64,000 nucleotides of DNA from Burkholderiales bacterium (GTDB lineage Bacteria > Pseudomonadota > Gammaproteobacteria > Burkholderiales > JAEUOS01), in NCBI GenBank assembly GCA_016790695.1, contig JAEUOS010000192.1, positions 13,064 through 77,063 on the forward strand, written 5' to 3'. The position numbers and the translations under genes are program-made. Below, piece by piece: positions 7,110 to 62,033 of the stretch; the stretch's first letter is position 1; each line of letters starts with the position of its first letter. The notes under the pieces are model-generated. The model did not search any database, was not told the origin of the DNA, and was given only the letters and a program-made list of their open reading frames with translations.

Positions 7110-7188
7110 CGTTCATCCGCCCCGCGAGCAGCGCCGACGCACGCCGCAACCCGGGGGCGGCGCGGCGCGATGGCGGGACGGGCGGCGC

Positions 7189-13519: not shown

Positions 13520-14920
13520 TTGACGGTGACGCCGGTGATTGCGACGGGCGACAGGCGCGGCGTGGCCGCGCCGGCAGGAGCGGGCAGCAAGCCGCGGGCC
13601 GCGCATCGGCCGGCCGCGCGCCCGTCGCCCGGGACCGGTCGGCGCCGCCTGCCCCGGCCGCGCGTCGCGCTCGCGATGGCGGGCGGCGGGCCGCTGGGCG
13701 CGATCTACGAAGTCGGCGCGCTCGCGGCGCTGGCGGAATCCCTGCACGGCCTCGACTTCAACCGTCTCGACGCCTATGTCGGCGTCTCCGCCGGCGGCAT
13801 CCTCGGCGCCGGGCTGGCCAACGGCATCACGCCGCGCGAGATGTGCCACCTGTTCATCGATGCCCCGGCGGACGGTCGCGCGCCCGACGGGGAGGTGCAG
13901 CCGTTCGACCCGTCGATGCTGATGCGGCCCGCGTTCGGCGAATACTGGGAGCGCCTGAAGCGCGTGCCGCCGCTGGCCGTCGAGGCGCTGTGGCGCTACG
14001 TGCGCTCCGGGCGCGGCCACGGGCCCGCGGGCATGCTCGGCGCCGCCGAGCATCTGGTGCAGTTGCTGCCGGCAGGCCTGTTCTCCAACGAGCCGCTGCG
14101 CGCCTACCTCGCGCGCCTGTTTGCCGCCCCGGGCCGGACCGACGATTTCCGCAAGCTCGGCACGCGCCTGTACCTGATCGCCACCGACCTCGATTCCGGC
14201 AAGGCGGTCGCCTTCGGGGCCGCCGGCCACGACGCGGTGCCGATCTCGGTCGCCGCGACGGCGAGTTCGGCCCTGCCCGGCCTGTTCCCGCCGGTGGAGA
14301 TCGCGGGTCGGCACTACGTGGATGGCGCGCTCAAGCGGACCCTGCATGCCTCGGTCGCCCTGCAGGGCGGCGCCGACCTGGTGATCTGCCTCAATCCGCT
14401 GGTGCCGTACGACGACAGCGCGGTGATCGCGGCGGGCGGCCGCGGTCGGCGCCTGATCGACGGCGGGTTGCCGCTGGTGGCCCTGCAGACCGTGCGCGCG
14501 GTGATCCACTCGCGCATGGAGATCGGCATGCGCCAGTACGGCGACGACTTTCCCCACGCCGACGTGGTGCTGTTCGAGCCCAACCGCGCCGATGCCGAGA
14601 TGTTCTTCACCAACATGTTCAGCTACTCGAACCGGCGCCGGCTGTCCGAGCACGCGTACCAGAAGACCCGCGCGGAATTGTGGCGCCGCCGGCACGAGCT
14701 GGCGCCGGTCCTGGCGCGGCACGGCATCGCCATCGACGTGGCGGCGCTGCGCGACACGTCCCGGACGCTGGTGGGAGGCCGTGGCCGCCCCGCGCGCGCG
14801 GCATGGCTGCCGTTCGGCACGATCACGGCGCAACTCGCCGATACCCTCGACGACCTGGGCCGCCTGCTCGGCCATCTGGACGCCCGGCGCGCGCCGGCGG
14901 CCCGCGCGGCGCGGGCGTGA
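13520..14920 (+). CDS. Patatin-like phospholipase
   Basis: GGGPLG oxyanion motif, GVSAG nucleophile elbow and YVDGAL catalytic Asp. The start is uncertain: TTG at 13520 is the first in-frame start, and the ATG at 13676 would remove the conserved RVALAMAGGG strand. Confidence 0.8.
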   Translation: MTVTPVIATGDRRGVAAPAGAGSKPRAAHRPAARPSPGTGRRRLPRPRVALAMAGGGPLGAIYEVGALAALAESLHGLDFNRLDAYVGVSAGGILGAGLANGITPREMCHLFIDAPADGRAPDGEVQPFDPSMLMRPAFGEYWERLKRVPPLAVEALWRYVRSGRGHGPAGMLGAAEHLVQLLPAGLFSNEPLRAYLARLFAAPGRTDDFRKLGTRLYLIATDLDSGKAVAFGAAGHDAVPISVAATASSALPGLFPPVEIAGRHYVDGALKRTLHASVALQGGADLVICLNPLVPYDDSAVIAAGGRGRRLIDGGLPLVALQTVRAVIHSRMEIGMRQYGDDFPHADVVLFEPNRADAEMFFTNMFSYSNRRRLSEHAYQKTRAELWRRRHELAPVLARHGIAIDVAALRDTSRTLVGGRGRPARAAWLPFGTITAQLADTLDDLGRLLGHLDARRAPAARAARA

Positions 14921-14964
14921 CGCGCGGCCGGCCGCAGGCCGCGGCCGCGTGCGGACGCCCATCG

Positions 14965-15066
14965 GCGTCGCCCGCCTGAGCCGGTGCCCGCCCTTGCCGG
15001 TGCCCGCCCTTGCCGGTGCCCGCCCTTGCCGGTGCCCGCCTGTGCCGGTGCCCGCCTGTGCCGGCA
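14965..15066. repeat. 16-bp tandem repeat: 5 full copies plus degenerate flanking copies
   Basis: Units at 14981, 14997 and 15013 are ccggtgcccgcccttg. Units at 15029 and 15045 are ccggtgcccgcctgtg. A 12/16 copy sits at 14965 and a partial copy at 15061. The repeat lies between convergent genes. Confidence 0.9.
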
Positions 15067-15105
15067 CGCCGGCGCCGCACGCGCGTCGCGGGCGACGGCG
15101 CGGGT

Positions 15106-15906
15106 TCAGCCGACCTTCGCCAGCGCGCCGCCGTCGACCGGCAGCGCCACGCCGGTGATGAAGCTGGCCTCGTCGGAGGCGAGGAACAGCGCGGCGTTGG
15201 CGACGTCCCACGCGGTGCCCATCCTGCCGCGCAGCGGCACCTGCGCGTCACGCTCGGCCTCGACCTCGGCGCGCGGCCGGTTGAAGGCGCGCGCGCGCGT
15301 GTCCACCGCCATCGGCGTGTTGATCAGGCCCGGCAGGATCGCGTTGGCGCGCACGCCGTAGGGCGCGTTGGCGAGGGCGAGCTGCTGGGTGAAGGCGATC
15401 ATCGCCGCCTTGGTCGCCTTGTAGGCGACGTACGGGTAGACGCTCCAGGCGGCGATCGAGGAGATGTTGACGATCGCGCCGCTCTTCTGCGCGCGCATCA
15501 CCGGCACCACGTGCTTGCAGGCCATCACCGTGCCGCGCAGGTTGATCGCCACGACGCGGTCGAAGCCGTCCTCGGTGATGTCGGCGAGCGCCGCGTCGCC
15601 GCCCGCGATCGAGACGCCGACATTGTTGTGCAGGACATCGACGCGTCCCCAGCGCGACATCGCGTCGGCGACCATGGCGGCCATGTCGCTCTCGTGCACG
15701 ACGTCGGCCGCGAAGGCCGCGGCGGTGCCGCCGGCGGATGCGATCGCGGCCGCGGTGGCGTCGGCGCCGGCGCGGTCGCGGTCGACGCACAGCACGCGCG
15801 CACCCTCGCGCGCGAACGTGAGGGCGGCGGCGCGGCCGTTGCCGACGCCCTCGCCGGGGCTCTGCCCGGCGCCGACGACGATGGCGACGCGGTCCTTCAG
15901 GCGCAT
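15106..15906 (-). CDS. Short-chain dehydrogenase/reductase (SDR)
   Basis: 266 aa; VVGAGQSPGEGVG cofactor motif, NISS and YxxxK (YVAYKATK). Confidence 0.9.
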   Translation of the reverse strand: MRLKDRVAIVVGAGQSPGEGVGNGRAAALTFAREGARVLCVDRDRAGADATAAAIASAGGTAAAFAADVVHESDMAAMVADAMSRWGRVDVLHNNVGVSIAGGDAALADITEDGFDRVVAINLRGTVMACKHVVPVMRAQKSGAIVNISSIAAWSVYPYVAYKATKAAMIAFTQQLALANAPYGVRANAILPGLINTPMAVDTRARAFNRPRAEVEAERDAQVPLRGRMGTAWDVANAALFLASDEASFITGVALPVDGGALAKVG

Positions 15907-15936
15907 GGCGGGGCCCTCCTCGGGCGGGGTGCGGAA

Positions 15937-16752
15937 TCAATCGATGTCATCGGTGTTGCCGGAGAACTCGATCGGGCAATAGAAGCCGCCGTGGAACTGC
16001 GCGGCAATCTCGTTCTCCTTTTCGCCCCTGGCGAGGATCTCGGCGGCGTAGACCTCGGAGTCGTCGACCGGGCGGTAGCCCAAGAACCTGACGTTGCTGT
16101 TGTCCCAGCGGCTGCGCAGGTTGTTCGAGACGCCGTAGACCACCGCGAAGTGGTAGTTCGGATGGTCGATGCAGCGCCGCACGAGCTGCACCATGTCGCG
16201 ATGGCTGATCCAGGTGAGCAGCTGGCGCGCGTTGTCCGGGCGGTCCGGATTGCGGAACGTGCCGATGCGCAGGCACGCGACCGACAGGCCGTGCTTGTCC
16301 GCATAGAGCCGGCCGACGGCCTCGCCGAACACCTTGGAGACGCCGTAGCGGGTGTCGGGCCGCGGCACCACGGTGTCGTCGATGAAACGCTCGCGCCGGT
16401 GAAAGCCGATCGCGTGGTTGGAGGAAGCGAAGATCACGCGGCCCACGCCCTGGCGCCGCGCCGCCTCGAACACGTTGTAGCAGCCGGCGATGTTGGCCGG
16501 CAGCACCTTCTCCCAGCTGTCCTCCACCGAGACCCCGCCCAGGTGCACCACGCAGTCGATGCCCGCCATGCTCCTCTCGAGCGCGGCGATGTCGGCGAGG
16601 TCGCACTGCACGAGTTCCTCGCCGGCGGCGGCGTCGCCGAGCGGCGCGATGTCCGACAGGCGCAGCAGCGCGTAGCTGCCGCGGAGGCCCTGGCGCAGCG
16701 CGACGCCGATCTGGCCGGCGGCGCCGGTGATGAGGATGCGATTGGCCTGCAT
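15937..16752 (-). CDS. udh: Uronate dehydrogenase (NAD-dependent epimerase/dehydratase fold)
   Basis: 271 aa. By-eye alignment to my recollection of Agrobacterium Udh shows LITGAAGQIG, VQCDLAD, VHLGGVSVE, FASSNHAIGF, YGVSKVFGE, LRIG, WDNS..FLGY.P.D and HGGFY. Confidence 0.8.
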   Translation of the reverse strand: MQANRILITGAAGQIGVALRQGLRGSYALLRLSDIAPLGDAAAGEELVQCDLADIAALERSMAGIDCVVHLGGVSVEDSWEKVLPANIAGCYNVFEAARRQGVGRVIFASSNHAIGFHRRERFIDDTVVPRPDTRYGVSKVFGEAVGRLYADKHGLSVACLRIGTFRNPDRPDNARQLLTWISHRDMVQLVRRCIDHPNYHFAVVYGVSNNLRSRWDNSNVRFLGYRPVDDSEVYAAEILARGEKENEIAAQFHGGFYCPIEFSGNTDDID

Positions 16753-16806
16753 GCGTCCCTCCCTTCTATGGTTCGTCGGCGGCGTGGATGCCGCCCCATG
16801 CGCCGG

Positions 16807-17895
16807 CTAGACCCGCAGCGCCTCCAGCCCCTTCCAGTCGAACTCGACGCCGTGCCCCGGGCGATCCGGCGCGACCGCGCAGCCCTCCGCGATCGCCAGC
16901 GGATGGGCGATGTACTGGTCCAGGCCGAATCCGTGCGCCTCGAGGTAGCTGCGGTTGGGGCAGGCGGCCAGGCAGTGCACGGTGATGTCGTGCGCGCCGT
17001 GCGAGGTCACCGGCAGGTTGGCCGCCTCGGCCAGGCGCGCCACCTTCATGAACCCGGTGACGCCGCCGACGACGGTGACGTCCGGCTCGGGAAAGGTCAC
17101 GCCGCCGGCGGCGATCATGTTCTGGAACTCCGACAGGGTGTGGAAGTTCTCGCCGGTCGCCACCGGCAGCCCGCCGTCGCGCACGATGCGCGCATGACCG
17201 GCGATGTCGTCGGGGATCGTGGGCTCCTCCAGCCAGACCGGCTGCAGGGGCGCGAGCGCGCGCGCCGCGCGGATCGCCTCGTCGGCGCTCCAGCGCATGT
17301 TCGCGTCGACCATCAGCGGGAAGTCGGCGCCGAGGTGCGCGCGCATCGCCGCCACCCGCGCCACGTCCTCCGAGAGCCGCGGCCGGCCCACCTTCATCTT
17401 GATGGCGCGAAACCCCTTCGCCAGGTTGGCGTCGGTCTGCGCGAGCAGCGCCTCCTCGGTGAACCAGAGGTCGATGCCGCCGGCGTAGCACGGCACGCGC
17501 GCGTCGAAGCCGCCCAGGAGCGTCCACAGCGGCACGCCGAAGCCGCGCGCCTTCAGGTCCCACAGCGCGATGTCGATCGCGGCGATCGCCATGGTCGCGG
17601 CGCCGCCGCGGCCGCCGTAGTGCAGGCGCCACCACATCTTCTGCCACACGGCCTCGATCAGGTCGGCGCGCTCCCCGACGAGCCCGGGCGCGAGGTCGTG
17701 GGCGATGGTGGCCGCGATCGCGCGGCCGTTGGCGCCGACGGTGTAGGTGTAGCCGCAGCCGTCGCCGCCGGCCGAGTCGGTGACGCGCGCGGTGACGAGT
17801 TCGAAGTGCGTCAGCGTGCCGTGAGTGCTGTCGCTCAGGGTCACCGGCAGCGGGATGCGGTAGAGGTCGGCGCGGACCGAGGCGATCGTGTTCAT
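16807..17895 (-). CDS. Enolase-superfamily enzyme, mandelate-racemase-subgroup-like (acid-sugar dehydratase/cycloisomerase candidate)
   Basis: ATG at 17895 by codon count (362 aa). KxK (IKMKVG), metal ligands MVDANM / WLEEP / ATGEN, and a late His (TSHGAHD). Confidence 0.85.
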   Translation of the reverse strand: MNTIASVRADLYRIPLPVTLSDSTHGTLTHFELVTARVTDSAGGDGCGYTYTVGANGRAIAATIAHDLAPGLVGERADLIEAVWQKMWWRLHYGGRGGAATMAIAAIDIALWDLKARGFGVPLWTLLGGFDARVPCYAGGIDLWFTEEALLAQTDANLAKGFRAIKMKVGRPRLSEDVARVAAMRAHLGADFPLMVDANMRWSADEAIRAARALAPLQPVWLEEPTIPDDIAGHARIVRDGGLPVATGENFHTLSEFQNMIAAGGVTFPEPDVTVVGGVTGFMKVARLAEAANLPVTSHGAHDITVHCLAACPNRSYLEAHGFGLDQYIAHPLAIAEGCAVAPDRPGHGVEFDWKGLEALRV

Positions 17896-17948
17896 CGATT
17901 CCGGGCCGCGTCGGGAGCGCGTCGCGTTTGCCGGCAGGCCATGGGGAG

Positions 17949-19133
17949 TCAGGCCAGTCCGTGCACCGCCAGCGTCGCGCGCATGCGCGCGCACGCGAGG
18001 TCGGGGTCGCGCAGCAGCCCGGCGCGGTCGGCGAGGCGGAACAGCTCCGCCAGGTGCAGGATGGAGCGCGCGCTCTGCTGGCCGCCGACCATGGTGAAGT
18101 GGTCCTGCGCGCCGTTGAGATAGGCCATGAACACCACGCCGGTCTTGTAGAAGCGCGTCGGCGCGCGGAAGATGTGGCGCGACAGCGGCACGGTGGGCGC
18201 GAGGATCGCGTTGAAGGTGCGCGTGTCGTCCTTCGCCAGCGCGGCCAGCGCGGCGGAGGCCGCCGGCGCGATGGCGTCGAAGATGCCCAGCAGCGCATGG
18301 CTGAAGCCGACGGCATCGCCTTCGATCAGCTCGGCGTAGTTGAAGTCGTCGCCGGTGTACATCTTCACGCCGGGCGCGAGCCGGCGGCGCATCGCGATCT
18401 CCTTGTCCTTGTCGAGCAGCGACACCTTGACGCCGTCGACCCGCGCGGCGTTGCGGTTGATCACGTCGACGGCGACGTCCATCGCGGCCAGGTGATCGGC
18501 CCGGCCCCAGTAGCCGGCGAGCGCCGGGTCGAACATCTCGCCGAGCCAGTGGATGATCACCGGCTCCCTCACCTGCGTCAGGATGCGGTCGTAGACGCGG
18601 TGGTAGTCGTCGGGCGATCGCGCCACCTGCGCCAGCGCGCGGCTGGCCATCAGGATGATGCGTCCGCCGAGCTTCTCGATCGCCGCGATCTGTTCCTCGT
18701 AGGCGCGGATCACGTCGTCGACCGAGCGCGCCGCGGCGGGGTCGAGGTGGTCGGTGCCGGCGCCGCTGGCCAGGAGCGCGCCCGGGATCTCTTTCGCCGC
18801 GTCGATGGAGCGCCGGATGAGTTCGAGCGAGGTCGGCCAGTCCAGGCCCATGCCGCGCTGCGCGGTGTCCATCGCCTCGGCCACGCCGAGGCCCAACCGC
18901 CACAGCCGGCGCCGGTAGGCGATGGTGGCGTCCCAGTCGATCGCGCAATCCAGCCACGGGTCGTGCTCCGCCAGCGGGTCGGCGACCACGTGCGCTGCCG
19001 AGTAGGCGATGCGCGTGAAGGCGCCGGCGGCACGGTCCGGAAAGCTGCGCGAGGCCGACAGGCGGAAGGTCTCGAGCCGGCCGCCGGCGACCGGCAGGTC
19101 GATGGCGGCGGCGATGCGTTCGGGGGCGTTCAT
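17949..19133 (-). CDS. DUF993 family protein (TIM-barrel, aldolase/DHDPS-like by recollection)
   Basis: ATG at 19133 by codon count (394 aa), ATGA overlap with the upstream gene. Conserved-looking blocks IAYSAAHVVADP, GLGVAEAMDTAQRGMGLDW and PVIIHWLGEMFDPALAGYWG match my memory of DUF993. Confidence 0.7.
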   Translation of the reverse strand: MNAPERIAAAIDLPVAGGRLETFRLSASRSFPDRAAGAFTRIAYSAAHVVADPLAEHDPWLDCAIDWDATIAYRRRLWRLGLGVAEAMDTAQRGMGLDWPTSLELIRRSIDAAKEIPGALLASGAGTDHLDPAAARSVDDVIRAYEEQIAAIEKLGGRIILMASRALAQVARSPDDYHRVYDRILTQVREPVIIHWLGEMFDPALAGYWGRADHLAAMDVAVDVINRNAARVDGVKVSLLDKDKEIAMRRRLAPGVKMYTGDDFNYAELIEGDAVGFSHALLGIFDAIAPAASAALAALAKDDTRTFNAILAPTVPLSRHIFRAPTRFYKTGVVFMAYLNGAQDHFTMVGGQQSARSILHLAELFRLADRAGLLRDPDLACARMRATLAVHGLA

Positions 19134-20569
19134 GGACTCTCCTTCGGGTGGGCGAGCGCGCGCATGCTGTTCCAGTCGGGCATCGCGGCGCTGGCGAAGC
19201 CGGCGCAGGCGAGCGAGCCGATCGCGATCTGTCCGTCGCGGATCCGCAGGCGCACCGCGCCGTGCGAGCGCGCGTAGAGGTCCGGGTGGGCCGCGAGGAA
19301 ATCGCGCTGCTCGGCCTCCGGATACGCGGCCATGCCGTCGACGTAGTGGTGGCCGTTGCGCTCCACGTGGGTGATGCCCAGGAGGTTGACCAGCGCCAGG
19401 TCCTGCTGCACGGCCAGGCCTGCCTGCGTCGTCAGGTCCTCGGCCGACATGAAGTAGCGCGGCGCGCCCGTCTCGCGGTTCCACTGCGCGCAGCGCGCCG
19501 CGTTGAGGATCGACTTGTAGAGGCCCTTGCAGGTCTTGGACGACACGCCGTCGTAGCCGCGCGCGCGCGCGTCGGCAAAGGTGTCGAGGGAGCCGTCGGA
19601 CTCGTCGATGATCACCGGCAGGCCGAGCGGCGTGCGCGCGAAGTCGGCGTCGAGCGCGGTCTTGCGGTTGATCGGCTGCTCGACGAACAGGATCGACGCC
19701 GTCAGGCGCGTGAGCGCCGGGCGCTCGCGCATGCGCGCGAGCAGCAGGGCGACCGCCCCGGCGTCCGCATACTGCTCGTTGCCGTCCAGCGACGCGAAGT
19801 AGGGCGCGGCCGAGCGGTCGAGCACCGCGGCGATCGCCTCGAGGCGGGCGAGGTCGGCGCCGATGTCGCCGCCGACCTTGAGCTTGAAGTACCGGTGGCC
19901 GTAGGTGGCGACGACCTCGTCGAGCGTTTCCGGCAGGCCGTCGCCGACGCGCTCGCGCAGGTCGGCGGCGGTGATGGCATCGACGAGCCCGACGGTGTGG
20001 CGGGCCGCGATCGCGGCGGCGGGCTCGCGCGCCGCCAGGAACGCGTCGATGTCGAGGCCGCCGAACTCGCGCCGCGCCGCGCCGATGCCGGCCAGGTTGC
20101 CGCGCATGGCGGTGTAGAAGTCGGTGCCGGCGGCGCGGCAGGCGGCGTCGAGGATGGCGCGGTCGATCAGCGCGGGCCCGTAACTGGCGAGCAGCGGGTT
20201 GTGGCCCCGCGCGCCCGCGGCGGCCAGATGCGCGTCGTAGTGGCGCGCGAAGTGGCCGAAGGCGGATGCCGGCGTCGCGTCGGCGAGATAGGCGTCGCGC
20301 GCGAGCAGCAGCACGTCGCGCAGCTGGTCGAAGTTGTCCTCGTTGCTGAGCGCGAGGTTCTTGTCGAACCACTTCGGCGCCATCATCTCGGCGGCGGCGC
20401 CGGCGGCCGTGCGGCCGTCGGTGAATTCCAGGGTCACGCGCGCGAAGGCTTGCGGGCAGGCCGTCAGGGTGACGACGCCGAAGCGGAACGGCAGGCGCAG
20501 CACCACCGGCCGCTCGAACAGCTCGATGGCGCGGACGGAAAAGCGCGGGGCGGCGCCGGCGGCGGCCAT
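19130..20569 (-). CDS. Divergent enolase-superfamily-like protein (479 aa)
   Basis: KxK (YFKLKVGG) and acidic ligands in enolase-barrel order (SLDGNEQY, FVEQP, IIDESD), with long N- and C-terminal regions I do not recognise. Confidence 0.6.
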   Translation of the reverse strand: MAAAGAAPRFSVRAIELFERPVVLRLPFRFGVVTLTACPQAFARVTLEFTDGRTAAGAAAEMMAPKWFDKNLALSNEDNFDQLRDVLLLARDAYLADATPASAFGHFARHYDAHLAAAGARGHNPLLASYGPALIDRAILDAACRAAGTDFYTAMRGNLAGIGAARREFGGLDIDAFLAAREPAAAIAARHTVGLVDAITAADLRERVGDGLPETLDEVVATYGHRYFKLKVGGDIGADLARLEAIAAVLDRSAAPYFASLDGNEQYADAGAVALLLARMRERPALTRLTASILFVEQPINRKTALDADFARTPLGLPVIIDESDGSLDTFADARARGYDGVSSKTCKGLYKSILNAARCAQWNRETGAPRYFMSAEDLTTQAGLAVQQDLALVNLLGITHVERNGHHYVDGMAAYPEAEQRDFLAAHPDLYARSHGAVRLRIRDGQIAIGSLACAGFASAAMPDWNSMRALAHPKESP

Positions 20570-20573
20570 GGCG

Positions 20574-21353
20574 TCAGTCCATCGCCAGCACGCCGGTGGC
20601 GCGGAAGATCTCGCGGATGCGGCCGGTGTACTCGTTGAAGCGCTCGGGCACCCGGTCCAGGCGCCGCGGCCGCGGCAGGTCGATGTCGAGGATCTCGACG
20701 ATGCGCCCGGGGCGCGGGCTCATCACCACGACGCGGTCGGCCAGCAGCACCGCCTCGGGGATGCTGTGGGTGATGAACAGCGCCGTCTTGCGCTTCTCCA
20801 TCCAGACGCGCTGGATGTCCATCGCGATCTGCTCGCGCGTGAGCGCATCGAGCGCGCCGAACGGCTCGTCCATCAGCAGCAGCGGCGGGTCGTGCACCAG
20901 CGCGCGGCAGATCGAGGCGCGCTGGCGCATGCCGCCGGAGAGCTCGAACGGCCGGTGCTTCTCGAATCCCGCGAGGCCGGTCGATGCCAGCAGGTGGCGC
21001 GCGACCGGCTCGTAGGCCGCGCGGTCGAGGCCGCGGATGTCGACCTGCAGCATCACGTTGTCGAGGATGTTGCGCCAGTCGAGCAGGATCGCGTCCTGGA
21101 ACACGATGCCGAGGTCGGTGTGCGGCCCGTCGACGCGCCGGCCGTCGACGGTGATCGTGCCGCTGGTGTACGGCTGCAGCCCGGCCACCATCTTGAGGAT
21201 GGTGGTCTTGCCGCAGCCGCTCGGGCCGACGATGGCGATGAACTCCGAGCGCCGGATCGCGAGGTTGACCTCGCCGCAGGCCTCGACCGGCCCGGCCTTC
21301 GACGGGTAGACCTTGCCGACGTTGTCGAGCCGGATGTAGGTGTCGTCGGCCAT
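20574..21353 (-). CDS. ABC transporter ATP-binding protein (NitT/TauT family)
   Basis: 259 aa; Walker A GPSGCGKTT, signature LSGGMRQR, Walker B LLLMDEP. Its start overlaps the SBP stop by 1 nt. Confidence 0.9.
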   Translation of the reverse strand: MADDTYIRLDNVGKVYPSKAGPVEACGEVNLAIRRSEFIAIVGPSGCGKTTILKMVAGLQPYTSGTITVDGRRVDGPHTDLGIVFQDAILLDWRNILDNVMLQVDIRGLDRAAYEPVARHLLASTGLAGFEKHRPFELSGGMRQRASICRALVHDPPLLLMDEPFGALDALTREQIAMDIQRVWMEKRKTALFITHSIPEAVLLADRVVVMSPRPGRIVEILDIDLPRPRRLDRVPERFNEYTGRIREIFRATGVLAMD

Positions 21354-22363
21354 CAGCGCTTGGGCAGGTACGGCGCTTCCGACAGGTACTCGTTGGTGAA
21401 GTACACGTTGAGGTCGGACGCCGGATTGAGCTTGGCGAACTTCGCGAGCAGGTCCTGGGTGTCGCGCCAGTCGCCGATGTCGGAGACCCCGATCGCCTTG
21501 CCCTTGGTGCGCTCGGTGCGGATGATGCTCATCGTGCCCTCGACCTCGAGCAGCGCGATCTCCTGGGTGAACACCGGCGCGGCCTTGCGGAAGATCTCGG
21601 CGGCCTCGGCGCGATTGTCGAACGCATGCTGCCAGCCGCGCTGCGAGGCGCGCAGGAAGCGCCGCAGCATGTCCTGGTTCTTCGCATCCTTGGCCCAGTT
21701 GTTGTTGACGATGATCGCCGAGGACAGCGTGGTCACGCCGGCCATGTCGTAGAGGCGGGTCCAGCCCATCTTGACGCCGGTCTGCAGCTGCATGCGCGGG
21801 CCCTGGTCCATGAAGTAGCCGAGCAGCGCGTCGGCCTGCTTGTTGAGCACGGCCTGCTCCTTGCCCTGCGGATTGGCCACCGTGATCACCTGGACATCCT
21901 CGACCTTCATGCCGAGCTTGCCCATGAAGGCGGTGAAGATCGCGAGGCTCGCGTCGCCGGCGGTCATGGCGATGCGGCTGCCCTTGATCTCCGAGATCTT
22001 GGTCGGCCGCGCCGCGTCCGCCCGGTAGATGAAGGCCATCGGGCTCTGCTGCAGGGTCACGCCGACCGCGCGGATCGGCATGCCGTTCGAGACGCCGCGC
22101 ATCATCGTCGCGGCGTCGACGTACGCGACCGGGCTGTTGTTCGACGCCACCAGCTGCGAGACGGTGGTCGAGCCGCTGCCTTCCTGGATCTCGACGTCGA
22201 GCCCCTCGGCGGCGTAGAAGCCCTTGTCGCGGGCGACGAAGAACGGCGCGTGCTCGCCGTACAGCGTCCAGTTGAGGCGGAACGGGAACTTGTCGAGCCG
22301 GGCCTGGGCCAGGGCCTGGCCGCCCATCATCAGCAGTACCAACAGCAGCAGGATGCGCTTCAT
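21353..22363 (-). CDS. NMT1/THI5-like (SsuA/TauA-type) periplasmic substrate-binding protein
   Basis: 336 aa with signal peptide MKRILLLLVLLMMGGQALAQA. Located between the ATPase and the permease of the same family. Confidence 0.85.
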   Translation of the reverse strand: MKRILLLLVLLMMGGQALAQARLDKFPFRLNWTLYGEHAPFFVARDKGFYAAEGLDVEIQEGSGSTTVSQLVASNNSPVAYVDAATMMRGVSNGMPIRAVGVTLQQSPMAFIYRADAARPTKISEIKGSRIAMTAGDASLAIFTAFMGKLGMKVEDVQVITVANPQGKEQAVLNKQADALLGYFMDQGPRMQLQTGVKMGWTRLYDMAGVTTLSSAIIVNNNWAKDAKNQDMLRRFLRASQRGWQHAFDNRAEAAEIFRKAAPVFTQEIALLEVEGTMSIIRTERTKGKAIGVSDIGDWRDTQDLLAKFAKLNPASDLNVYFTNEYLSEAPYLPKR

Positions 22364-22388
22364 GGATGTCTCCTTTGGGTTGACGACG

Positions 22389-23156
22389 CTACATGGTGCC
22401 TGCGCCCTCGCGCACGCGGTGGGTCACGTGCCAGGGGATCAGGAAGGCTTCGAGGAACTCGACGATGTAGAAGAACACCAGGCCGATGATGGTCAGCGCC
22501 ACGATGGTCGCGAACATCAGCGCGGTCTCCATGTTCGAATTGGTGACCAGCAGCAGGTAGCCGAGCCCCTTGTCGGCGCCGACGAACTCGCCGACCACCG
22601 CGCCGGCGACCGCGAGGGTGGCGGCGACCTTGAGCCCGGAGAAGAGGTAGGGCAGGCTGGTCGGCAGGCGGAAGCGCGCGAACAGCTGCCAGCGCGTTGC
22701 GCCCATCGAGCGCGCCAGGTCGTTCATTTCCGACGACATCGAGCGCAGGCCGACGGCCGCGTCGATGACGATCGGAAAGAACGAGATCAGGAACGCGACC
22801 AGCACCTTGGGCGTGGTGCCGACGCCGAACCACACGAGGAACAGCGGCGCGATCGCGACCTTGGGCACGACCTGGAAGAACAGGAGCTGCGGCGTGATGA
22901 AGCGGTCGAAGCGGTTCGACGAGGTGATGCCGATCGCGAGCGGCACGGCGATGACCACCGCGAGCAGGTAGCCGAGCAGCATCTCGTAGGTCGTGATCCA
23001 GCCGTGGAACAGCAGCTTGGGGAACTCCTGGACGAACGTGCCGAACACCTTGGTCGGCGGCGGCATCAGGTAGGCCGGCACCTTGAACAGGTGCACCAGC
23101 ACCTCCCAGGCGGCGAGGAAGACGAGGATGCCGAAGAACGGGGCGAGGCGGATCAT
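22389..23156 (-). CDS. ABC transporter permease (NitT/TauT family)
   Basis: ATG at 23156 by codon count (255 aa, 6 predicted TM). ATGA overlap with the upstream enolase gene. Confidence 0.9.
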   Translation of the reverse strand: MIRLAPFFGILVFLAAWEVLVHLFKVPAYLMPPPTKVFGTFVQEFPKLLFHGWITTYEMLLGYLLAVVIAVPLAIGITSSNRFDRFITPQLLFFQVVPKVAIAPLFLVWFGVGTTPKVLVAFLISFFPIVIDAAVGLRSMSSEMNDLARSMGATRWQLFARFRLPTSLPYLFSGLKVAATLAVAGAVVGEFVGADKGLGYLLLVTNSNMETALMFATIVALTIIGLVFFYIVEFLEAFLIPWHVTHRVREGAGTM

Positions 23157-24277
23157 GAAGCGGCGGCGGGCGTCAGGGATTGGAGGGCGGCGGCGTCCGG
23201 CACGATGCCGAGGCCGGGGCGGTCGGGCACGCGCACGCGGTCCAGCCGCGCGCGGAACGCGGCGTCGGTCGTGCCGCGGCCGTCGAGGTACTGCGGGCCG
23301 TTGAGCGCCGCCGGCCGTTCCAGGCCGGCCCAGGCGAACAGGTGGATCGAGGCGGCGAGCGACAGTTCGGCGTCGGTCAGGCCGGAGGCGAACAGCGCGA
23401 GCCCGTCGCGGCGCATGCCCTCGACGATGCGCGCGGCGTGCCAGAGGCCGCCGCAGCGCGCCACCTTCATCGCGATGCCGTCGAGCATGCCGAGGGCGGC
23501 GAACTCCTCGGCCTCGACCGCCGAGATCACGCCTTCGTCCATCAGGATCGGCAGCGCACCCTGCCGCTTGAGCGCCTGGTAGGCGCGGATGCGATTCGGC
23601 GGCAGCGGCGACTCGAGGGCCGCCAGCCCCAGGTCGGCCAGGCGCGGCGCCTGCGCGAGCGCGGTATCGAGGTCGTAGCCGGTGTTGGCGTCGCCCCAAT
23701 GGAGCCCGCCGGGCGCGAAGGCCATCACCTTGCGGACCAGGGCGAGATCGTAGTCGGGGCTCTGCGGCGGGCCGAGCTTGATGTTGAAGCTGCCGTAGCC
23801 GAGGGCGCGGCCCTCCTCGAGCAGCCGGTCGGCGGCGTCGAGGCTCGTGGTGTTGATGGTCCACGACAGCCGGATCTCCGCGGCGCGCACGCCGCCCAGC
23901 AGCGCGGCCACCGGCCGGCCGGCCTGGTGTCCCCAGAGGTCGTGGCAGGCGAGGTCGATCGCCGCCTTGGCCAGCGGCTGCCCGACCGAGAAGCTCGGCC
24001 GGATCGCGCGTTCCATCCGCGCATGGATGTCGGCGAGATCGGCGGGATCGGCGCCGAGCACCGCCGGCGCGAGGTACAGCCGGAGCGTGGACTCGACGCT
24101 CTCGACGGTCTCGTAGGTCCAGGTCTCGACCGGCACCGCCTGCCCGTAGCCGTGGCGCCCGTCCGCGTCGGTCAGGCGCACCAGCACGGTCGGCCGGCTG
24201 CCCGACTTGAAGAACTTGAACTCGCCCACCAGGGGATAGTCCCGGCGGCCGACTTCCACCTTGGTGATCCTGGACAT
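23153..24277 (-). CDS. Enolase-superfamily enzyme, muconate-lactonizing-subgroup-like (racemase/epimerase/cycloisomerase candidate)
   Basis: 374 aa; NIKLG (first Lys of KxK replaced by Asn), ligands WGDANTG / ALESP / LMDEG, and second base IAMKVARCGG. Confidence 0.85.
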   Translation of the reverse strand: MSRITKVEVGRRDYPLVGEFKFFKSGSRPTVLVRLTDADGRHGYGQAVPVETWTYETVESVESTLRLYLAPAVLGADPADLADIHARMERAIRPSFSVGQPLAKAAIDLACHDLWGHQAGRPVAALLGGVRAAEIRLSWTINTTSLDAADRLLEEGRALGYGSFNIKLGPPQSPDYDLALVRKVMAFAPGGLHWGDANTGYDLDTALAQAPRLADLGLAALESPLPPNRIRAYQALKRQGALPILMDEGVISAVEAEEFAALGMLDGIAMKVARCGGLWHAARIVEGMRRDGLALFASGLTDAELSLAASIHLFAWAGLERPAALNGPQYLDGRGTTDAAFRARLDRVRVPDRPGLGIVPDAAALQSLTPAAAS

Positions 24278-24319
24278 GTCGATTGCAGGGAGATGCCGCG
24301 CCAGAACGAGTCGGGAAGT

Positions 24320-24335
24320 GTAACCGAACGGTTAA
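24320..24335. promoter_or_regulatory. Candidate TetR-type operator O1 (GTAAC-N6-GTTAA)
   Basis: gTAACcgaaCGGTTAa, 43 nt upstream of the enolase ATG (24277, minus strand). It shares TAAC-N4-CGGTTA with three other sites. Confidence 0.55.
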
Positions 24336-24458
24336 CCTCGTTCACCGCCGCGCTGCGGCGCGCGGGCGCCGCCGCCGCCGCGCGCGCGCCGCCGCGACGG
24401 ACGCACCCGGAGGCGGTCGCACACCGGCCCGCGCGCGGCGGCCGGGCCCGGGCCCGAA

Positions 24459-24474
24459 GTAACGAGACGGTTAC
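24459..24474. promoter_or_regulatory. Candidate TetR-type operator O2 (GTAAC-N6-GTTAC)
   Basis: gTAACgagaCGGTTAc, 44 nt upstream of the MetE-like ATG (24518). It sits immediately upstream of a TAGGAT -10-like hexamer at 24481. Confidence 0.55.
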
Positions 24475-24517
24475 ATGTGTTAGGATTTTCGGGTTCATCG
24501 CAACCACGGGAATCGCC

Positions 24518-25522
24518 ATGCCGCGCATCAAGACCACCGTCGTCGGGTCGTATCCGGTGCCCGACTGGCTCGCCGCCGCGCCGTCCGAGCAGGCGCTGAC
24601 CGACGCCACCCGCGTGGTCATCGCCACGCAGGAGACCGCCGGCATCGACGTGGTCTGCGACGGTGAGCTCTACCGCTTCGACGTCAACCATCCCGAGACC
24701 AACGGGATGATCGAGTACTTCGTGCGCCCGCTCGACGGGGTCGGCTTCCGCATGAGTTTCGAGGAGCGCATCGCCTACCGCCAGGCCGAGGCGACGCGCT
24801 TTCGCACCCGCCCGCCGGGCGTCGTCGAGGGGCCGCTCGGCAGCGGCATGCTCGACCTGCCGCTCGCGTGCGCGCGCGCCGCGGCGCTCGCCACCAAGCC
24901 GTTCAAGTTCACCCTGACCGGCCCGCACATGCTCGCCAAGATGGTGATGAACAAGCACTACAAGGACACGCCGTCGCTGGCGTTCGCGCTCGCCGACATC
25001 CTCGCCGAGCAGGTCGCGCACTGCCGCGCCGACATCATCCAGGTCGACGAGGCCAACCTGCCCGGCGCGCCCGACGAATGGGAGTGGGCGGCCGCGTCGA
25101 TGAATCGGGTGCTCGACGCGGTCACGTCGGTGCCCGCGGTGCACCTGTGCTTCGGCAACTACGGCGGCCAGAGCATCCAGAAGGGCGGCTGGAAGAGCCT
25201 GATCCGCTACCTCAACGCATTGCACGTCGACCACATCGTCATGGAATGCGCGCACCGGCCCGAGGACGAACTCGCGGTGTTCCGCGACCTCGACCCGAAG
25301 ATCGGCTTCGGGCTGGGCGTGGTCGACATCAAGCGCACCGAGGCCGAGTCGGCGGACGCGATCGCGCGCGCGATCGAGCGTGCCGAGAAGACCCTGGGCG
25401 CGGGGCGCGTGAAGTACATCCATCCGGACTGCGGCTTCTGGATGCTCAAGCGCGGCATCGCCGACGCCAAGATCCGCGCGCTCGCGAAGGGGCGCGACCT
25501 GTTCGAGGGCGTCGCCGGCTAG
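24518..25522 (+). CDS. Cobalamin-independent methionine synthase (MetE C-terminal-like) family protein, second paralog
   Basis: 334 aa from MPRIKTTVVGSYPVPDWL, with VHLCFGNYGG and HPDCGFW motifs. Confidence 0.8.
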   Translation: MPRIKTTVVGSYPVPDWLAAAPSEQALTDATRVVIATQETAGIDVVCDGELYRFDVNHPETNGMIEYFVRPLDGVGFRMSFEERIAYRQAEATRFRTRPPGVVEGPLGSGMLDLPLACARAAALATKPFKFTLTGPHMLAKMVMNKHYKDTPSLAFALADILAEQVAHCRADIIQVDEANLPGAPDEWEWAAASMNRVLDAVTSVPAVHLCFGNYGGQSIQKGGWKSLIRYLNALHVDHIVMECAHRPEDELAVFRDLDPKIGFGLGVVDIKRTEAESADAIARAIERAEKTLGAGRVKYIHPDCGFWMLKRGIADAKIRALAKGRDLFEGVAG

Positions 25523-26346
25523 AGGCTCTCGGCGAGACCCTGCAGGTAGCCGATCGCGCGCGCCGCGCAGCCCGGGCCGTCCGGCACGTACTCGAACGGC
25601 TCGGCGGCGACCACGCCCGCGTAGCCGGTGTCCGCCAGCGCGCGCAGGATCGGCCCGAATTCCATCGCGCCCTGTCCGGGCGCGCGCCGGTTCGGGTCGT
25701 TGACCTGGACGTGGGCGACGAGCCCGGTGGGCATCCAGCGGCGGATCAGGTCGGCCACCGGCTCGGCCTCGGAGACGCCGGCGGAACTGGTGTCGATCAT
25801 GGTGCGCAGATGCGGGTTGTCGACCGCGCGCACGATCGCGGCGGCGTCGGCAAGCGTGTTGATCACCCGCGTCTGCGCCGGCGACAGCGGCTCGATGCAG
25901 TAGGTGACGCCGGCCGCGCGCGCGGCCGCGCCGGCAGCGGCGAACGCCTCGGTGGCGCGGTCGACGGCGGTCGCGACGGTCTCGCCCGGCGCCACGGCGC
26001 GCTGGGCATTCGAGCCGTGCACGAGGTAGGTGCCGCCCATCGCGGCGCACAGCTCGCACAGCCGCCGCATCATCGCCACGGTGCGCGCGCGCACGGCGCC
26101 GTCGGGCGCGGTGATCGACAGGCCCGCGGGCCGGACCAGCAGCCAGTGCAGCCCGGTGATGGCGATGCCGTGATCGGCGGCGACCGCGGCCAGCGCGCGC
26201 GCATCGGCCTCGGTCATCGCCTCGGGGTCGTCGGCGACCGTGTAGGGGGCGACCTCCAGCCCCATGTAGCCGAGCGCGGCGGCGATGCGGCATTGCGCGG
26301 CGAACGGCAGCGGTGCGAGCACCTCGTTGCACAGCGCGAACTTCAT
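25519..26346 (-). CDS. Sugar phosphate isomerase/epimerase (xylose-isomerase-like TIM barrel)
   Basis: 275 aa; MKFALCNEVL... with YCIEPL and VHVQVND motifs. It lies 19 nt downstream of the TetR gene, so it is probably co-transcribed with it. Confidence 0.8.
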   Translation of the reverse strand: MKFALCNEVLAPLPFAAQCRIAAALGYMGLEVAPYTVADDPEAMTEADARALAAVAADHGIAITGLHWLLVRPAGLSITAPDGAVRARTVAMMRRLCELCAAMGGTYLVHGSNAQRAVAPGETVATAVDRATEAFAAAGAAARAAGVTYCIEPLSPAQTRVINTLADAAAIVRAVDNPHLRTMIDTSSAGVSEAEPVADLIRRWMPTGLVAHVQVNDPNRRAPGQGAMEFGPILRALADTGYAGVVAAEPFEYVPDGPGCAARAIGYLQGLAESL

Positions 26347-26365
26347 CGCGATCCGCTCCGCGCGG

Positions 26366-27040
26366 TCATGCCTTGAACAGATAGCCCAGCACGAGGTCGG
26401 TCATGTGCGCGAGGCGCTCGGCCTTGGCGCGCGGCGACAGCAGGTCGCGGCCGAAGATCGCCGACAGCGTGTACTTGTTGCCGAGGTAGAAGTAGGTGAG
26501 CGCGGCGATCGAGATGTACAGCTGCACCGGATCGACGCCGGCGCGGAAGACGCCGGACTTGCGCCCGCGCTCGAGGATGTCCTCGATCATGGCCACGAAC
26601 GGCGAATGCATCGAGCGCACCGTGGTCGAATTCTCGAGGTGCCGCGCGCGATGCAGGTTGGCGCTGTTCAAGAGCGTCATGAATTCCGGGTTCTCGAGGT
26701 AGTAGTTCCAGGTGAACGCGACCAGCCGGCGGATCGCCTCCGGCGGCTCGACCTCGGCCAGGCGCAGCGCCTTCTCGGCCTCGCGGATGTGCGCGTAGGC
26801 GGCCTCGAGCACCGCGAGGAACAGCTCGTCCTTGTTGCCGAAGTAGTAGTAGAGCATGCGCTTGTTCGCATCGGCCGCGGCGGCGATGCGGTCGACGCGC
26901 GCCCCGCCCAGGCCGTGGGCGGCGAACTCCGCCTTGGCAGCCTCGAGGATGCGCGCGCGGGTGCGCTCCGGGTCGCGCGCCGGGCGGTCGACCGGCCGCT
27001 TGCGCCGGGCCGGCGATGCCGCTTTCGGAATGGCCTTCAT
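26366..27040 (-). CDS. TetR/AcrR-family transcriptional regulator
   Basis: 224 aa; HTH (ILEAAKAEFAAHGLGGARVDRIAAAADANKRMLYYYFGNKDELF). Confidence 0.9.
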   Translation of the reverse strand: MKAIPKAASPARRKRPVDRPARDPERTRARILEAAKAEFAAHGLGGARVDRIAAAADANKRMLYYYFGNKDELFLAVLEAAYAHIREAEKALRLAEVEPPEAIRRLVAFTWNYYLENPEFMTLLNSANLHRARHLENSTTVRSMHSPFVAMIEDILERGRKSGVFRAGVDPVQLYISIAALTYFYLGNKYTLSAIFGRDLLSPRAKAERLAHMTDLVLGYLFKA

Positions 27041-27046
27041 CGAACT

Positions 27047-27065
27047 ATTGTAACTGTCCGGTTAC
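27047..27065. promoter_or_regulatory. Candidate TetR operator O3 (GTAAC-N6-GTTAC) overlapping a TACAAT -10 box for the TetR gene
   Basis: Plus strand gTAACtgtcCGGTTAc at 27050-27065. On the minus strand it reads GGTAACCGGACAGTTACAATagttcgATG. TACAAT (27052-27047) ends 6 nt before the TetR ATG, and there is no Shine-Dalgarno. Confidence 0.55.
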
Positions 27066-27124
27066 CGGCAGCAAATCCGTGTCGCACGGCGCCCGCCCGC
27101 GAAGCGCGCGGGTAAACTCGCGCC

Positions 27125-28411: not shown

Positions 28412-28417
28412 CCCGAC

Positions 28418-28723
28418 TCAGGCCGCGCGCAGGATCGGCGCGGGCGCGCCTCGGCCCCTGACCTCCGCCTCCTCGAACTCGGCCGCGGCGATCGCCCGGC
28501 CGAGCGCGGCAGCGAGCGCCTTGGCGGATTCGAGCGTCAGCTCGACCCCGGCCCGCGCACCCGCGTCGAGCCCGGTGTTGAGGAAGTCGAGCGTGATCAC
28601 GTCGCCCAGCGGCGCATGCCGCGCGTGGTCGTAGGCGACGACCGCCTGCGACAGCGGGAACCAGGCGTCGCCGCGCTTGGCCATGCCTTCGGCGGGCGCG
28701 ATCTCGATGATCGAGGTGCACAT
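28418..28723 (-). CDS. Small hypothetical protein (101 aa), possibly DUF6295-like
   Basis: ORF starting MCTSIIEIAPAEGMAKRGDAWFPL. Codon usage matches the genome. It lies 10 nt downstream of the dienelactone hydrolase gene. The family assignment is from memory only. Confidence 0.5.
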   Translation of the reverse strand: MCTSIIEIAPAEGMAKRGDAWFPLSQAVVAYDHARHAPLGDVITLDFLNTGLDAGARAGVELTLESAKALAAALGRAIAAAEFEEAEVRGRGAPAPILRAA

Positions 28724-60745: not shown

Positions 60746-60834
60746 GGTCGGTTTTCCCGGGATGACGGACCGGCAGTTTATCCGCGCGCGGCCTAGAATC
60801 CTCGCCTCCGCTCCGGCGCCCCCGACCGACCGCC

Positions 60835-62017: not shown

Positions 62018-62033
62018 TTAACGACCCGGTTAC
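62018..62033. promoter_or_regulatory. Candidate TetR-type operator O4 (TTAAC-N6-GTTAC)
   Basis: tTAACgaccCGGTTAc, starting 6 nt after a TAGACT -10-like hexamer (62007-62012). It lies 49 nt upstream of the SBP ATG. Confidence 0.5.

Follow-up and report, generated by a model that had tools for sequence, protein, structure and literature searches.

Which pathway is encoded by nine consecutive minus-strand genes that place a uronate dehydrogenase (Udh) homologue in one block with two orphan protein families, DUF993 and a 479-residue enolase-like family? The genes (g1 to g9, numbered from the promoter end) lie at 15106-24277 of a 64,000-nucleotide stretch of a Burkholderiales genome (GenBank assembly GCA_016790695.1, contig JAEUOS010000192.1, forward-strand positions 13,064 to 77,063), which is called the window below. 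We propose that a uronate is oxidised to an aldarolactone, converted into a keto-deoxy-aldarate and cleaved by an aldolase towards glycerate; this proposal, in which the substrate, the order of the steps and the aldolase chemistry of DUF993 are all predicted, has in our judgment somewhat less than an even chance of being right. An earlier note on the same DNA had read part of the operon as an oxidative uronate pathway. The homology of g8 to Udh speaks for that reading, whereas the lack of a conserved unit and of the expected type of cycloisomerase speaks against it, and it stands as a reasonable hypothesis which the gene set does not enforce. The nine genes are as follows.

23153-24277, minus strand: g1, MLE-subgroup-like enolase-superfamily protein (374 aa), first gene of the operon
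22389-23156, minus strand: g2, ATP-binding cassette (ABC) permease of the NitT/TauT type (255 aa), overlapping g1 by 4 nt
21353-22363, minus strand: g3, periplasmic NMT1/THI5-type solute-binding protein with a signal peptide (336 aa)
20574-21353, minus strand: g4, ABC ATPase, TauB-like (259 aa), overlapping g3 by 1 nt
19130-20569, minus strand: g5, enolase-superfamily outlier with a putative MLE-like catalytic set (479 aa)
17949-19133, minus strand: g6, DUF993 protein with a predicted DHDPS/NAL-like TIM barrel (394 aa), overlapping g5 by 4 nt
16807-17895, minus strand: g7, MR-subgroup enolase of the clade of 2OVL and 3,6-anhydro-L-galactonate cycloisomerase (ACI) (362 aa)
15937-16752, minus strand: g8, Udh homologue (271 aa)
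15106-15906, minus strand: g9, classical short-chain dehydrogenase/reductase (SDR) oxidoreductase (266 aa), last gene

The open reading frames agree with the earlier note in number and strand, the junctions recomputed from their coordinates (-4, +25, -1, +4, -4, +53, +54 and +30 nt) were identical to those it gave, and its family assignments for all nine genes were borne out by Pfam and NCBIfam searches. Third-position GC is 0.93-0.97 in all nine reading frames, in a window with a G+C content of about 72%. No minus-strand terminator-like or promoter-like (sigma-70-like) site was found inside the block by a consensus scan, Shine-Dalgarno-like purine runs are present in its three larger gaps, and an Rfam scan of 14000-28500 detected no riboswitch or other RNA family. 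The genes are predicted from sequence to form a TetR-repressed catabolic operon for nutrient breakdown, of the sugar-acid type, with which the tail g7-g9 would be co-transcribed.

The assignment of g8 as a Udh, already made in the earlier note, is well supported and as good as sequence can give. The Pfam match of g8 is the extended-SDR family 'Epimerase', and the protein was aligned over its full length with A. tumefaciens Udh (3RFT; 225 bits, E = 1e-65, residues 3-258 on 3-258); scores with the Udh structures 6MFH and 3AY3 were similar, and the next-best families reached 60 bits or less. The catalytic and substrate-site motifs TGAAGQIG (GxxGxxG), YGVSK (YxxxK), SSNH, GGVSVE and LRIG (RIG) are in register with 3RFT. 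Parkkinen and co-workers reportedly described the residue roles of these motifs in the A. tumefaciens enzyme in 2011. Sequence comparison led us to reject the NAD-epimerase-like gene that is usual in related clusters (see below) as a homologue of g8 (22% identity, E = 0.02).

The sole Pfam match of g6 is PF06187 (DUF993), over the full length with 626 bits, in keeping with the earlier call. The protein is 68% identical (E = 9e-171) to 4DNH, the structure of the uncharacterised S. meliloti protein SMc04132. This structure has been solved since 2012; no published function for DUF993, PF06187 or 4DNH was found in the searchable literature, and SMc04132 appears there in one transcriptome table only, as 'uncharacterized protein'. 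With the predicted model of g6, all Foldseek matches listed beyond 4DNH were DHDPS, NAL or YagE-type class I aldolases, with E-values of 2e-9 to 4e-8 and target-normalised TM-scores of 0.70-0.82 against DHDPS/NAL. The earlier note had seen DUF993 in the slot of a DHDPS-like enzyme and had suggested this structural comparison, whose outcome (E about 2e-9, TM about 0.8) favours it; as judged from the model, DUF993 is a (beta/alpha)8 barrel of the DHDPS/NAL aldolase fold. The invariant K236 (D-G-V-K) falls on predicted strand 232-238, the sixth barrel strand by count, a mapping given by secondary-structure register only, and G261-D262-D263 follows predicted strand 7, as in DHDPS. K236 may thus be the Schiff-base lysine.

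That three enolase-fold proteins share the operon, as claimed before, was confirmed, for g5 by its predicted structure. g5 is about 100 aa longer than the MLE/MR members, and its Pfam match was a weak one to MR_MLE_C alone (40 bits), with no N-domain match; NCBIfam gave nothing meaningful and a PDB search by sequence, profile included, no significant match (best E = 1e-3). An AlphaFold model built on 33 homologues (pLDDT 91, pTM 0.92) gave 284 PDB structural matches at E≤0.001, of which the 50 listed all belong to the enolase superfamily, with target-normalised TM-scores of 0.63-0.75 and identities of 11-21%. The residues K229-x-K231, D262 (DGNEQ), E297 (IEQP), D322 (IDESD) and K345/K348 are invariant in the 33 sequences (61-78% identity to the query). 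When placed on the barrel strands by motif order and the secondary structure of the model, they would make up an MLE-type catalytic set of three carboxylate metal ligands and a general base. According to the model, g5 does belong to the enolase superfamily, as a very remote member with a capping domain and a modified TIM barrel; Pfam, NCBIfam and the PDB profile search placed it in no characterised enolase subgroup or family. About 540 clusters at 50% identity match it at E≤1e-30, no curated family model or solved structure names a function for this family, and the exact protein was not on record in public contigs.

Both other enolases carry MR_MLE_N and MR_MLE_C (Pfam). g7 scored 485 bits with 2OVL (uncharacterised, S. 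coelicolor), 321 bits with ACI (5XD7), 196 bits with L-talarate/galactarate dehydratase (TalrD/GalrD) and 110 bits with the galactarolactone cycloisomerase Gci (4GGB/4HPN); with the TalrD/GalrD family model it reached 264 bits (cut-off 500). It is about 47% identical over the full length to ACI, an enzyme opening a ring by beta-elimination next to a carboxylate, and the KxK motif, the metal ligands and the catalytic His are aligned. The Agrobacterium-type cycloisomerase that the earlier note had expected to act after Udh is not seen in g7, whose 110 bits to Gci 4GGB are far below its scores with ACI and 2OVL; g7 was rejected as Gci on these scores, and Gci was not listed among the best PDB matches of g1 or g5. 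For g1, the top NCBIfam match was muconate cycloisomerase, under the cut-off as with every NCBIfam model, and the best PDB match was chloromuconate cycloisomerase (1.6e-33); among its PDB relatives are N-acylamino-acid racemases, dipeptide epimerases and 4H2H. The SDR g9 matched adh_short_C2 (197 bits) and, with 218 bits against 215, passed the NCBIfam model for the glucose 1-dehydrogenase subfamily.

The claim of a NitT/TauT-type importer held up in Pfam and NCBIfam, which returned an NMT1-type binding protein, a TauC/SsuC-like permease and a TauB-like ATPase. g2 is BPD_transp_1, with SaoP, TauC and SsuC as top NCBIfam matches, all below cut-off; g3 is NMT1 (PF09084, 144 bits), and its closest PDB entry is 4NMY, an unnamed solute-binding protein (2e-17); g4 is ABC_tran, with 232 bits to the taurine ATPase model (cut-off 357). 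By annotation rules the importer substrate is not taurine, sulfonate or nitrate, because all equivalog models were below cut-off.

The operon is bordered by four genes, u1 to u4, among which lie three copies of one operator-like palindrome, each found by pattern search.

24320-24335: operator-like palindrome GTAACCGAACGGTTAA, upstream of g1
24459-24474: operator GTAACGAGACGGTTAC, upstream of the divergent MetE-like gene u1
24518-25522, plus strand: u1, single-domain MetE-like protein (Meth_synt_2), divergent from g1 (Pfam 78.8 bits; below all methionine-synthase cut-offs)
25519-26346, minus strand: u2, xylose-isomerase-like TIM barrel (XylTIM; PF01261) of the keto-sugar epimerase/isomerase type, co-oriented with the TetR gene
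26366-27040, minus strand: u3, TetR-family repressor (TetR_N + TetR_C_29)
27050-27065: operator GTAACTGTCCGGTTAC, between u3 and u4
27125-28411, plus strand: u4, glycerate 2-kinase family protein (Pfam DUF4147 + MOFRL), divergent from u2/u3

The consensus GTAAC-N6-GTTAC was matched at 4 sites in the window against 0.08 expected (pattern search), and at 6 sites in the 5.49 Mb of the genome. The operator is conserved at the promoters of the TetR gene and of the cluster in Burkholderiales, Alphaproteobacteria and an Eremiobacterota metagenome-assembled genome (MAG), and orthologues of u3 adjoin the cluster in Burkholderiales, Alphaproteobacteria and one Eremiobacterota MAG with the same operator; since the motif is conserved across phyla, the regulon is taken to be real and old. 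The site common to the operon and the glycerate 2-kinase promoter, pointed out in the earlier note, was thus found again and is kept in relatives. u4 scored 210 bits with the NCBIfam glycerate 2-kinase model (cut-off 550) and adjoins the TetR gene also in the loci L002 and L010 of relatives; the top NCBIfam matches of u2 were 5-keto-L-gluconate epimerase and psicose 3-epimerase, below cut-off.

Three further sites were recorded. A fourth copy with one mismatch (TTAACGACCCGGTTAC, 62018-62033) is flanked by a CoA-transferase III gene (60766-62004) on one side and a Peripla_BP_6 binding-protein/ABC set (from 62022) on the other, and may extend the regulon or be due to chance. Outside the window, at C64:4005-5961 (contig C64), the operator TTAACGAATTGGTTAA (C64:5531) stands between genes for an OYE-like 491-aa flavoprotein and a ChrR-type cupin; in the loci L005 and L006, the orthologues of these two genes are part of the g5-DUF993 cluster, and in both same-genus genomes they have the operator too. 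The regulon is hence divided between at least two contigs. The sixth, operator-like site (TTAACAAGATGGTTAA, C133:16659, likewise outside the window) is between FAD monooxygenase-like and DctP-type TRAP binding-protein genes. Two single-domain MetE-like (Meth_synt_2) paralogues occur in the window (5940-7112 and 24518-25522), each heading an acid-sugar block and not in a methionine context.

The operon may have been assembled from three pieces: an uptake and pre-processing set (g1, the importer g2-g4 and the divergent u1), a remnant of a widespread orphan module (g5, g6, u2 and the TetR gene u3), and a lineage-specific tail (the MR-type cycloisomerase/dehydratase g7, Udh g8 and the SDR g9). In the proposed route, a uronate-type substrate would be imported by g2-g4 and oxidised at C1 by Udh to an aldaro-lactone. 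Enolase-type enzymes would then abstract the proton alpha to the carboxylate, and with elimination of the ring or hydroxyl oxygen, or epimerisation, a 2-keto-3-deoxy-aldarate would arise; g7, by analogy with ACI, and g5 and g1, with their putative MLE-type two-lysine sites, are the candidates for this step. The DUF993 lysine would form a Schiff base with the 2-keto acid and release pyruvate and tartronate semialdehyde. The latter would be isomerised or reduced to glycerate by u2, g9 or a HIBADH-type enzyme as in relatives, and the glycerate would be phosphorylated by the co-regulated glycerate 2-kinase u4. HIBADH-like genes are present inside the clusters of close relatives, with 2-hydroxy-3-oxopropionate reductase as their best model, which fits the last steps of the route.

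For the comparison with other genomes, relatives of g5 were searched for in one genome per species; 384 stretches were found, 80 loci were kept, and gene linkage was counted in the 51 of these that were at least 17 kb long. The kept loci are mostly from Comamonadaceae-like Burkholderiales (Ramlibacter, Variovorax, Caenimonas), with some from Alphaproteobacteria, Rokubacteria and Eremiobacterota. In these loci, g5 and DUF993 are conserved together with XylTIM, Gfo/Idh/MocA, DHDPS-like, NAD-epimerase-like and TetR genes. In the long loci, g5 has u2 (XylTIM) immediately upstream in 42/51, a DHDPS-like gene beside it in 33/51, a 340-aa NAD-epimerase-like gene in 32/51, DUF993 in 29/51, Gfo/Idh/MocA in 22/51, a second XylTIM in 21/51 and TetR in 14/51. 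g1 accompanies g5 in 7/51, together with u1 and ABC genes, and u1 is linked to g1 and ABC genes in 9/51. The cluster transporters of relatives are TctABC or an NMT1-type ABC system, and CoA-transferases are present in the alphaproteobacterial versions. In the genome of the window (91% complete), tblastn at 1e-15 found none of the Gfo/Idh/MocA, second XylTIM, DHDPS-like and NAD-epimerase-like partners. As these usual partners are absent here, the operon is seen as a widespread orphan cluster that has been stripped down and rebuilt. In favour of a meaningful link between Udh and DUF993, the two are found at a distance of 3-21 kb in G242, a genome of the same genus, and in G209, G290 and G072, which represent three genera of another family; the neighbourhood in G290 also includes a GntR gene and a TRAP binding protein that share 80% identity with their counterparts at the C153 locus described below. 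In a sample of the order, Udh was present in 17/29 DUF993-positive and 28/272 DUF993-negative genomes, which are related and not independent; the contrast is inflated by kinship and only suggestive. The lack of a KdgD equivalog in the genome likewise speaks for the link.

A number of results weigh against the uronate reading. The nine genes, described in the earlier note as one operon, are not a conserved unit: g7 and g9 stand beside g5 in 0/51 long loci each and beside the cluster in none of the 80 related loci, g8 (Udh) is beside g5 in 2/51 long loci, and the nine-gene set is unique to this genome. The majority of g5/DUF993 clusters are without Udh and carry Gfo/Idh/MocA, DHDPS-like and NAD-epimerase-like genes instead, and therefore the native substrate of the core may not be a uronate. 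Close relatives of g7 elsewhere adjoin either a metallo-beta-lactamase-fold hydrolase or an IlvD/EDD dehydratase together with a 2-hydroxyacid dehydrogenase; none adjoins Udh. Elsewhere in the genome, HpcH-type aldolases are present, and so is a conventional oxidative uronate locus, outside the window at C153:19260-28774. In this locus, a Udh paralogue (49% identity with g8) is accompanied by GntR, a binding protein of the TctC type, a TRAP transporter of the DctP type, a beta-propeller lactonase and a dehydratase of the UxaA/GarD family, which scored 362 bits with the galactarate dehydratase model and thus stayed below cut-off. The locus resembles the lactonase variant of the oxidative uronate pathway (PMC6353982). 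The substrate specificity of g8 may differ, because the 49%-identical paralogue sits in the conventional locus. The PDB search gave no ligand clue for g3. As for DUF993, there was no match to Pfam DHDPS (PF00701), and hhalign comparisons were not significant with E. coli DapA or with the DHDPS-like proteins of related clusters. The Thr-Thr and Tyr motifs of DHDPS (GTTGE on strand 2 and YNxP on strand 5) are not recognisable in DUF993, which has AEAMDTAQRG in the region of strand 2 and IIHWLG in that of strand 5.

The tail g7-g9 has a mixed ancestry. Orthologues of g8 that are 85-87% identical are present in both same-genus genomes, G242 and G200, and g8 is thus considered native to the genus. 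In G242, Udh follows DUF993 at a distance of about 8 kb and belongs to an MFS-Udh-CoA-transferase unit whose convergent neighbours are cupin and OYE-like genes, and in G200, Udh is followed by a CoA-transferase gene, again convergent with OYE-like and cupin genes; this context does not fit a simple aldolase route and also counts against our proposal. The CoA-transferase of the window (60766-62004) was rejected as the orthologue of this same-genus Udh neighbour, being 34% identical, with a 75% orthologue on contig C82. About fifty CoA-transferase family III paralogues are present genome-wide, tblastn matches to one query being spread over about 40 contigs, and TctC-type binding-protein genes recur in the loci examined. 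No g7 was detected in the 6 further genomes sampled from the same family, and its best matches elsewhere (82-86% identity) are in other families. In L111, L112 and L115 (G034, G045 and G089; other Burkholderiales families), 78-86%-identical relatives of g7 are paired with a metallo-beta-lactamase-fold hydrolase of about 305 aa; the partner is a possible lactonase, a hint that the g7 clade acts on a lactone-related substrate. Between g9 and a convergent patatin-like gene, Tandem Repeats Finder (score 141) reported a 16-bp tandem repeat of 5.9 copies with 93% matches at 14970-15064, which may be a rearrangement scar where synteny with relatives is lost. The +53 and +54 gaps start exactly where this synteny ends, at the 3' end of g6.

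These observations can be read as a fusion that makes no single pathway. g1-g6 with u1-u4 would then degrade a non-uronate carboxylate, the native substrate of the g5/XylTIM/DUF993 module, possibly with CoA-transferase and ene-reductase steps as in relatives, and g7-g9 would be an unrelated sugar-acid or lactone tail put behind the operon by a local rearrangement. We regard this main rival as quite possible, though less likely than our proposal: g7 and g9 are missing from all 80 related loci and g8 is in 2, the nearest g7 sequences are those of other families, some 8 kb of other genes separate DUF993 and Udh in the same genus, the end of the tail is marked by the tandem repeat, and the longer gaps begin at the loss of synteny. 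The OYE-like and cupin genes, sharing the operator on C64 and lying inside the cluster in L005 and L006, and the alphaproteobacterial CoA-transferases point the same way. Such a fusion is harder to reconcile with the absence of terminator-like and promoter-like signals between g6 and g9, with the proximity of Udh and DUF993 that recurs in another family, and with the series of folds (extended SDR, enolase, DHDPS-like), which mirrors the known uronate route. A further possibility is that the contig was misassembled at g6-g7-g8, the genome being fragmented and MAG-like (228 contigs; 91% complete, 3.75% contamination), and that the nine-gene operon is not real; this would account for synteny stopping at the 3' end of g6. 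We consider it very improbable, however, as GC and third-position GC are uniform across the junctions and the gaps are short with ribosome-binding sites; a chimeric contig is unlikely because g7 is flanked by two genus-typical genes, g6 and g8, both with 85-87% same-genus orthologues, and the composition is uniform.

Two smaller rivals concern the role of DUF993 and the nature of the substrate. DUF993 could be KdgD-like, a Schiff-base dehydratase/decarboxylase acting on 5-keto-4-deoxy-aldarate to give 2-ketoglutarate semialdehyde, which would make the operon a non-orthologous form of the Agrobacterium/Pseudomonas route to 2-ketoglutarate. Its DHDPS/NAL fold, the presence of Udh and the lack of a KdgD equivalog in the genome (the best TIGR03249 match, outside the window, has 110 bits against a cut-off of 374) are consistent with this, but we think it improbable: the nine genes and flanking regulon genes hold no aldehyde dehydrogenase, the co-regulated end enzyme is a glycerate 2-kinase, relatives carry tartronate-semialdehyde-reductase-like genes, and many clusters hold both a DHDPS-like gene and DUF993, which are hence not simple substitutes. 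The substrate might, on the other hand, not be a sugar acid at all but a small polar carboxylate (e.g., an N-substituted amino acid, a betaine or a heterocycle), with the Udh-like enzyme acting on another hemiacetal or alcohol. NMT1/THI5-type binding proteins with known ligands bind pyrimidines, the importer is nearest to taurine/sulfonate systems in NCBIfam, the PDB relatives of g1 include the racemases and epimerases named above and 4H2H, and a MetE-like protein is genetically linked. Little probability is given to this by us, as g8 retains the aligned substrate-contact motifs of A. tumefaciens Udh, g7 falls in an acid-sugar clade, u2 resembles keto-sugar epimerases, a glycerate kinase is in the regulon, and relatives use TctABC carboxylate transporters and Gfo/Idh/MocA sugar dehydrogenases.

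The DUF993 and g5 families are widespread in soil and freshwater bacteria, and most copies lie among anonymous dehydrogenases. Here they share an operon with the well-understood Udh and a repressor site with a glycerate 2-kinase, a linkage that narrows the candidate compounds to uronates, aldaro-lactones, aldarates and keto-deoxy-aldarates, and points to Schiff-base aldol cleavage as the chemistry. The locus does not solve the orphan module; its value is that Udh and a defined end reaction bracket two orphan families. A bolder statement, which we consider unlikely as it stands, would be that DUF993 is a new family of lysine Schiff-base aldolases/lyases and defines with g5 a third, so far undescribed branch of oxidative uronate/aldarate catabolism (from Udh through ring opening or dehydration of the enolase type to DUF993 cleavage into pyruvate and tartronate semialdehyde, and on to glycerate and 2-phosphoglycerate), and that the streamlined operon, with Udh in place of the Gfo/Idh/MocA and NAD-epimerase-like dehydrogenases, reveals the substrate class of the orphan module. 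Should the lead from this locus hold up, two orphan families would obtain a function and bacterial uronate oxidation a glycerate-forming branch, which would matter for the turnover of pectin and hemicellulose and for aldaric-acid biotechnology; if it fails, the locus is one more mosaic sugar-acid operon.

In E. coli, glucarate and galactarate are degraded by the dehydratases GudD/GarD, the aldolase GarL, the tartronate-semialdehyde reductase GarR and the glycerate kinase GarK. The proposed conversion of a keto-deoxy-aldarate to pyruvate and tartronate semialdehyde, then to glycerate and phosphoglycerate, is like this pathway, and likewise a glycerate kinase is co-regulated with the operon and GarR-like genes are present in the clusters of close relatives. 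Unlike GarL, which is of the class II HpcH type, the aldolase candidate of the operon has the predicted class I DHDPS-like fold; the linked kinase is of the DUF4147/MOFRL type, the operon has no GarR-like gene, and its candidate dehydratases are at most distant relatives of GudD and GarD. The oxidative pathway for D-galacturonate and D-glucuronate in A. tumefaciens and Pseudomonas consists of Udh, Gli or UxuL/UxuF, Gci or GarD/GudD, KdgD and 2-ketoglutarate-semialdehyde dehydrogenase, and its folds run from extended SDR through the enolase superfamily to DHDPS-like (PMC6353982). A Udh homologue, enolase-superfamily enzymes and a DHDPS/NAL-fold protein are likewise found in our operon. The operon differs in that it has no Gli or lactonase gene; no Gci orthologue or GarD/GudD stands beside its Udh (a GarD-like gene is on C153); its DHDPS-fold protein is DUF993 and not KdgD, no TIGR03249 match being above cut-off genome-wide; no aldehyde dehydrogenase domain occurs in the nine genes or flanking regulon genes; uptake is by a NitT/TauT-type ABC system; and the regulon ends in a glycerate 2-kinase. 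Three of the defining enzymes of the complete oxidative uronate pathway are thus missing, and the operon is not counted as a member of it.

The g7 protein resembles ACI of the agar 3,6-anhydrogalactose (AHG) pathway in its full-length alignment and catalytic residues, but it is nearer to 2OVL, and no AHG dehydrogenase or agarase context is present here. The orphan module itself, which occurs in many phyla, consists of Gfo/Idh/MocA, DUF993 and XylTIM, often joined to NAD-epimerase-like, DHDPS-like and XylTIM genes and the 479-aa enolase, with 4DNH as the structure of one member. g5, g6, u2 and the TetR gene with its operator are orthologous to those of the module. The Gfo/Idh/MocA, second XylTIM, DHDPS-like and NAD-epimerase-like genes of the module are absent from this genome, the operon having Udh, an ACI-like enolase and an SDR in their stead, and here g5 and g6 are directly overlapped by 4 nt.

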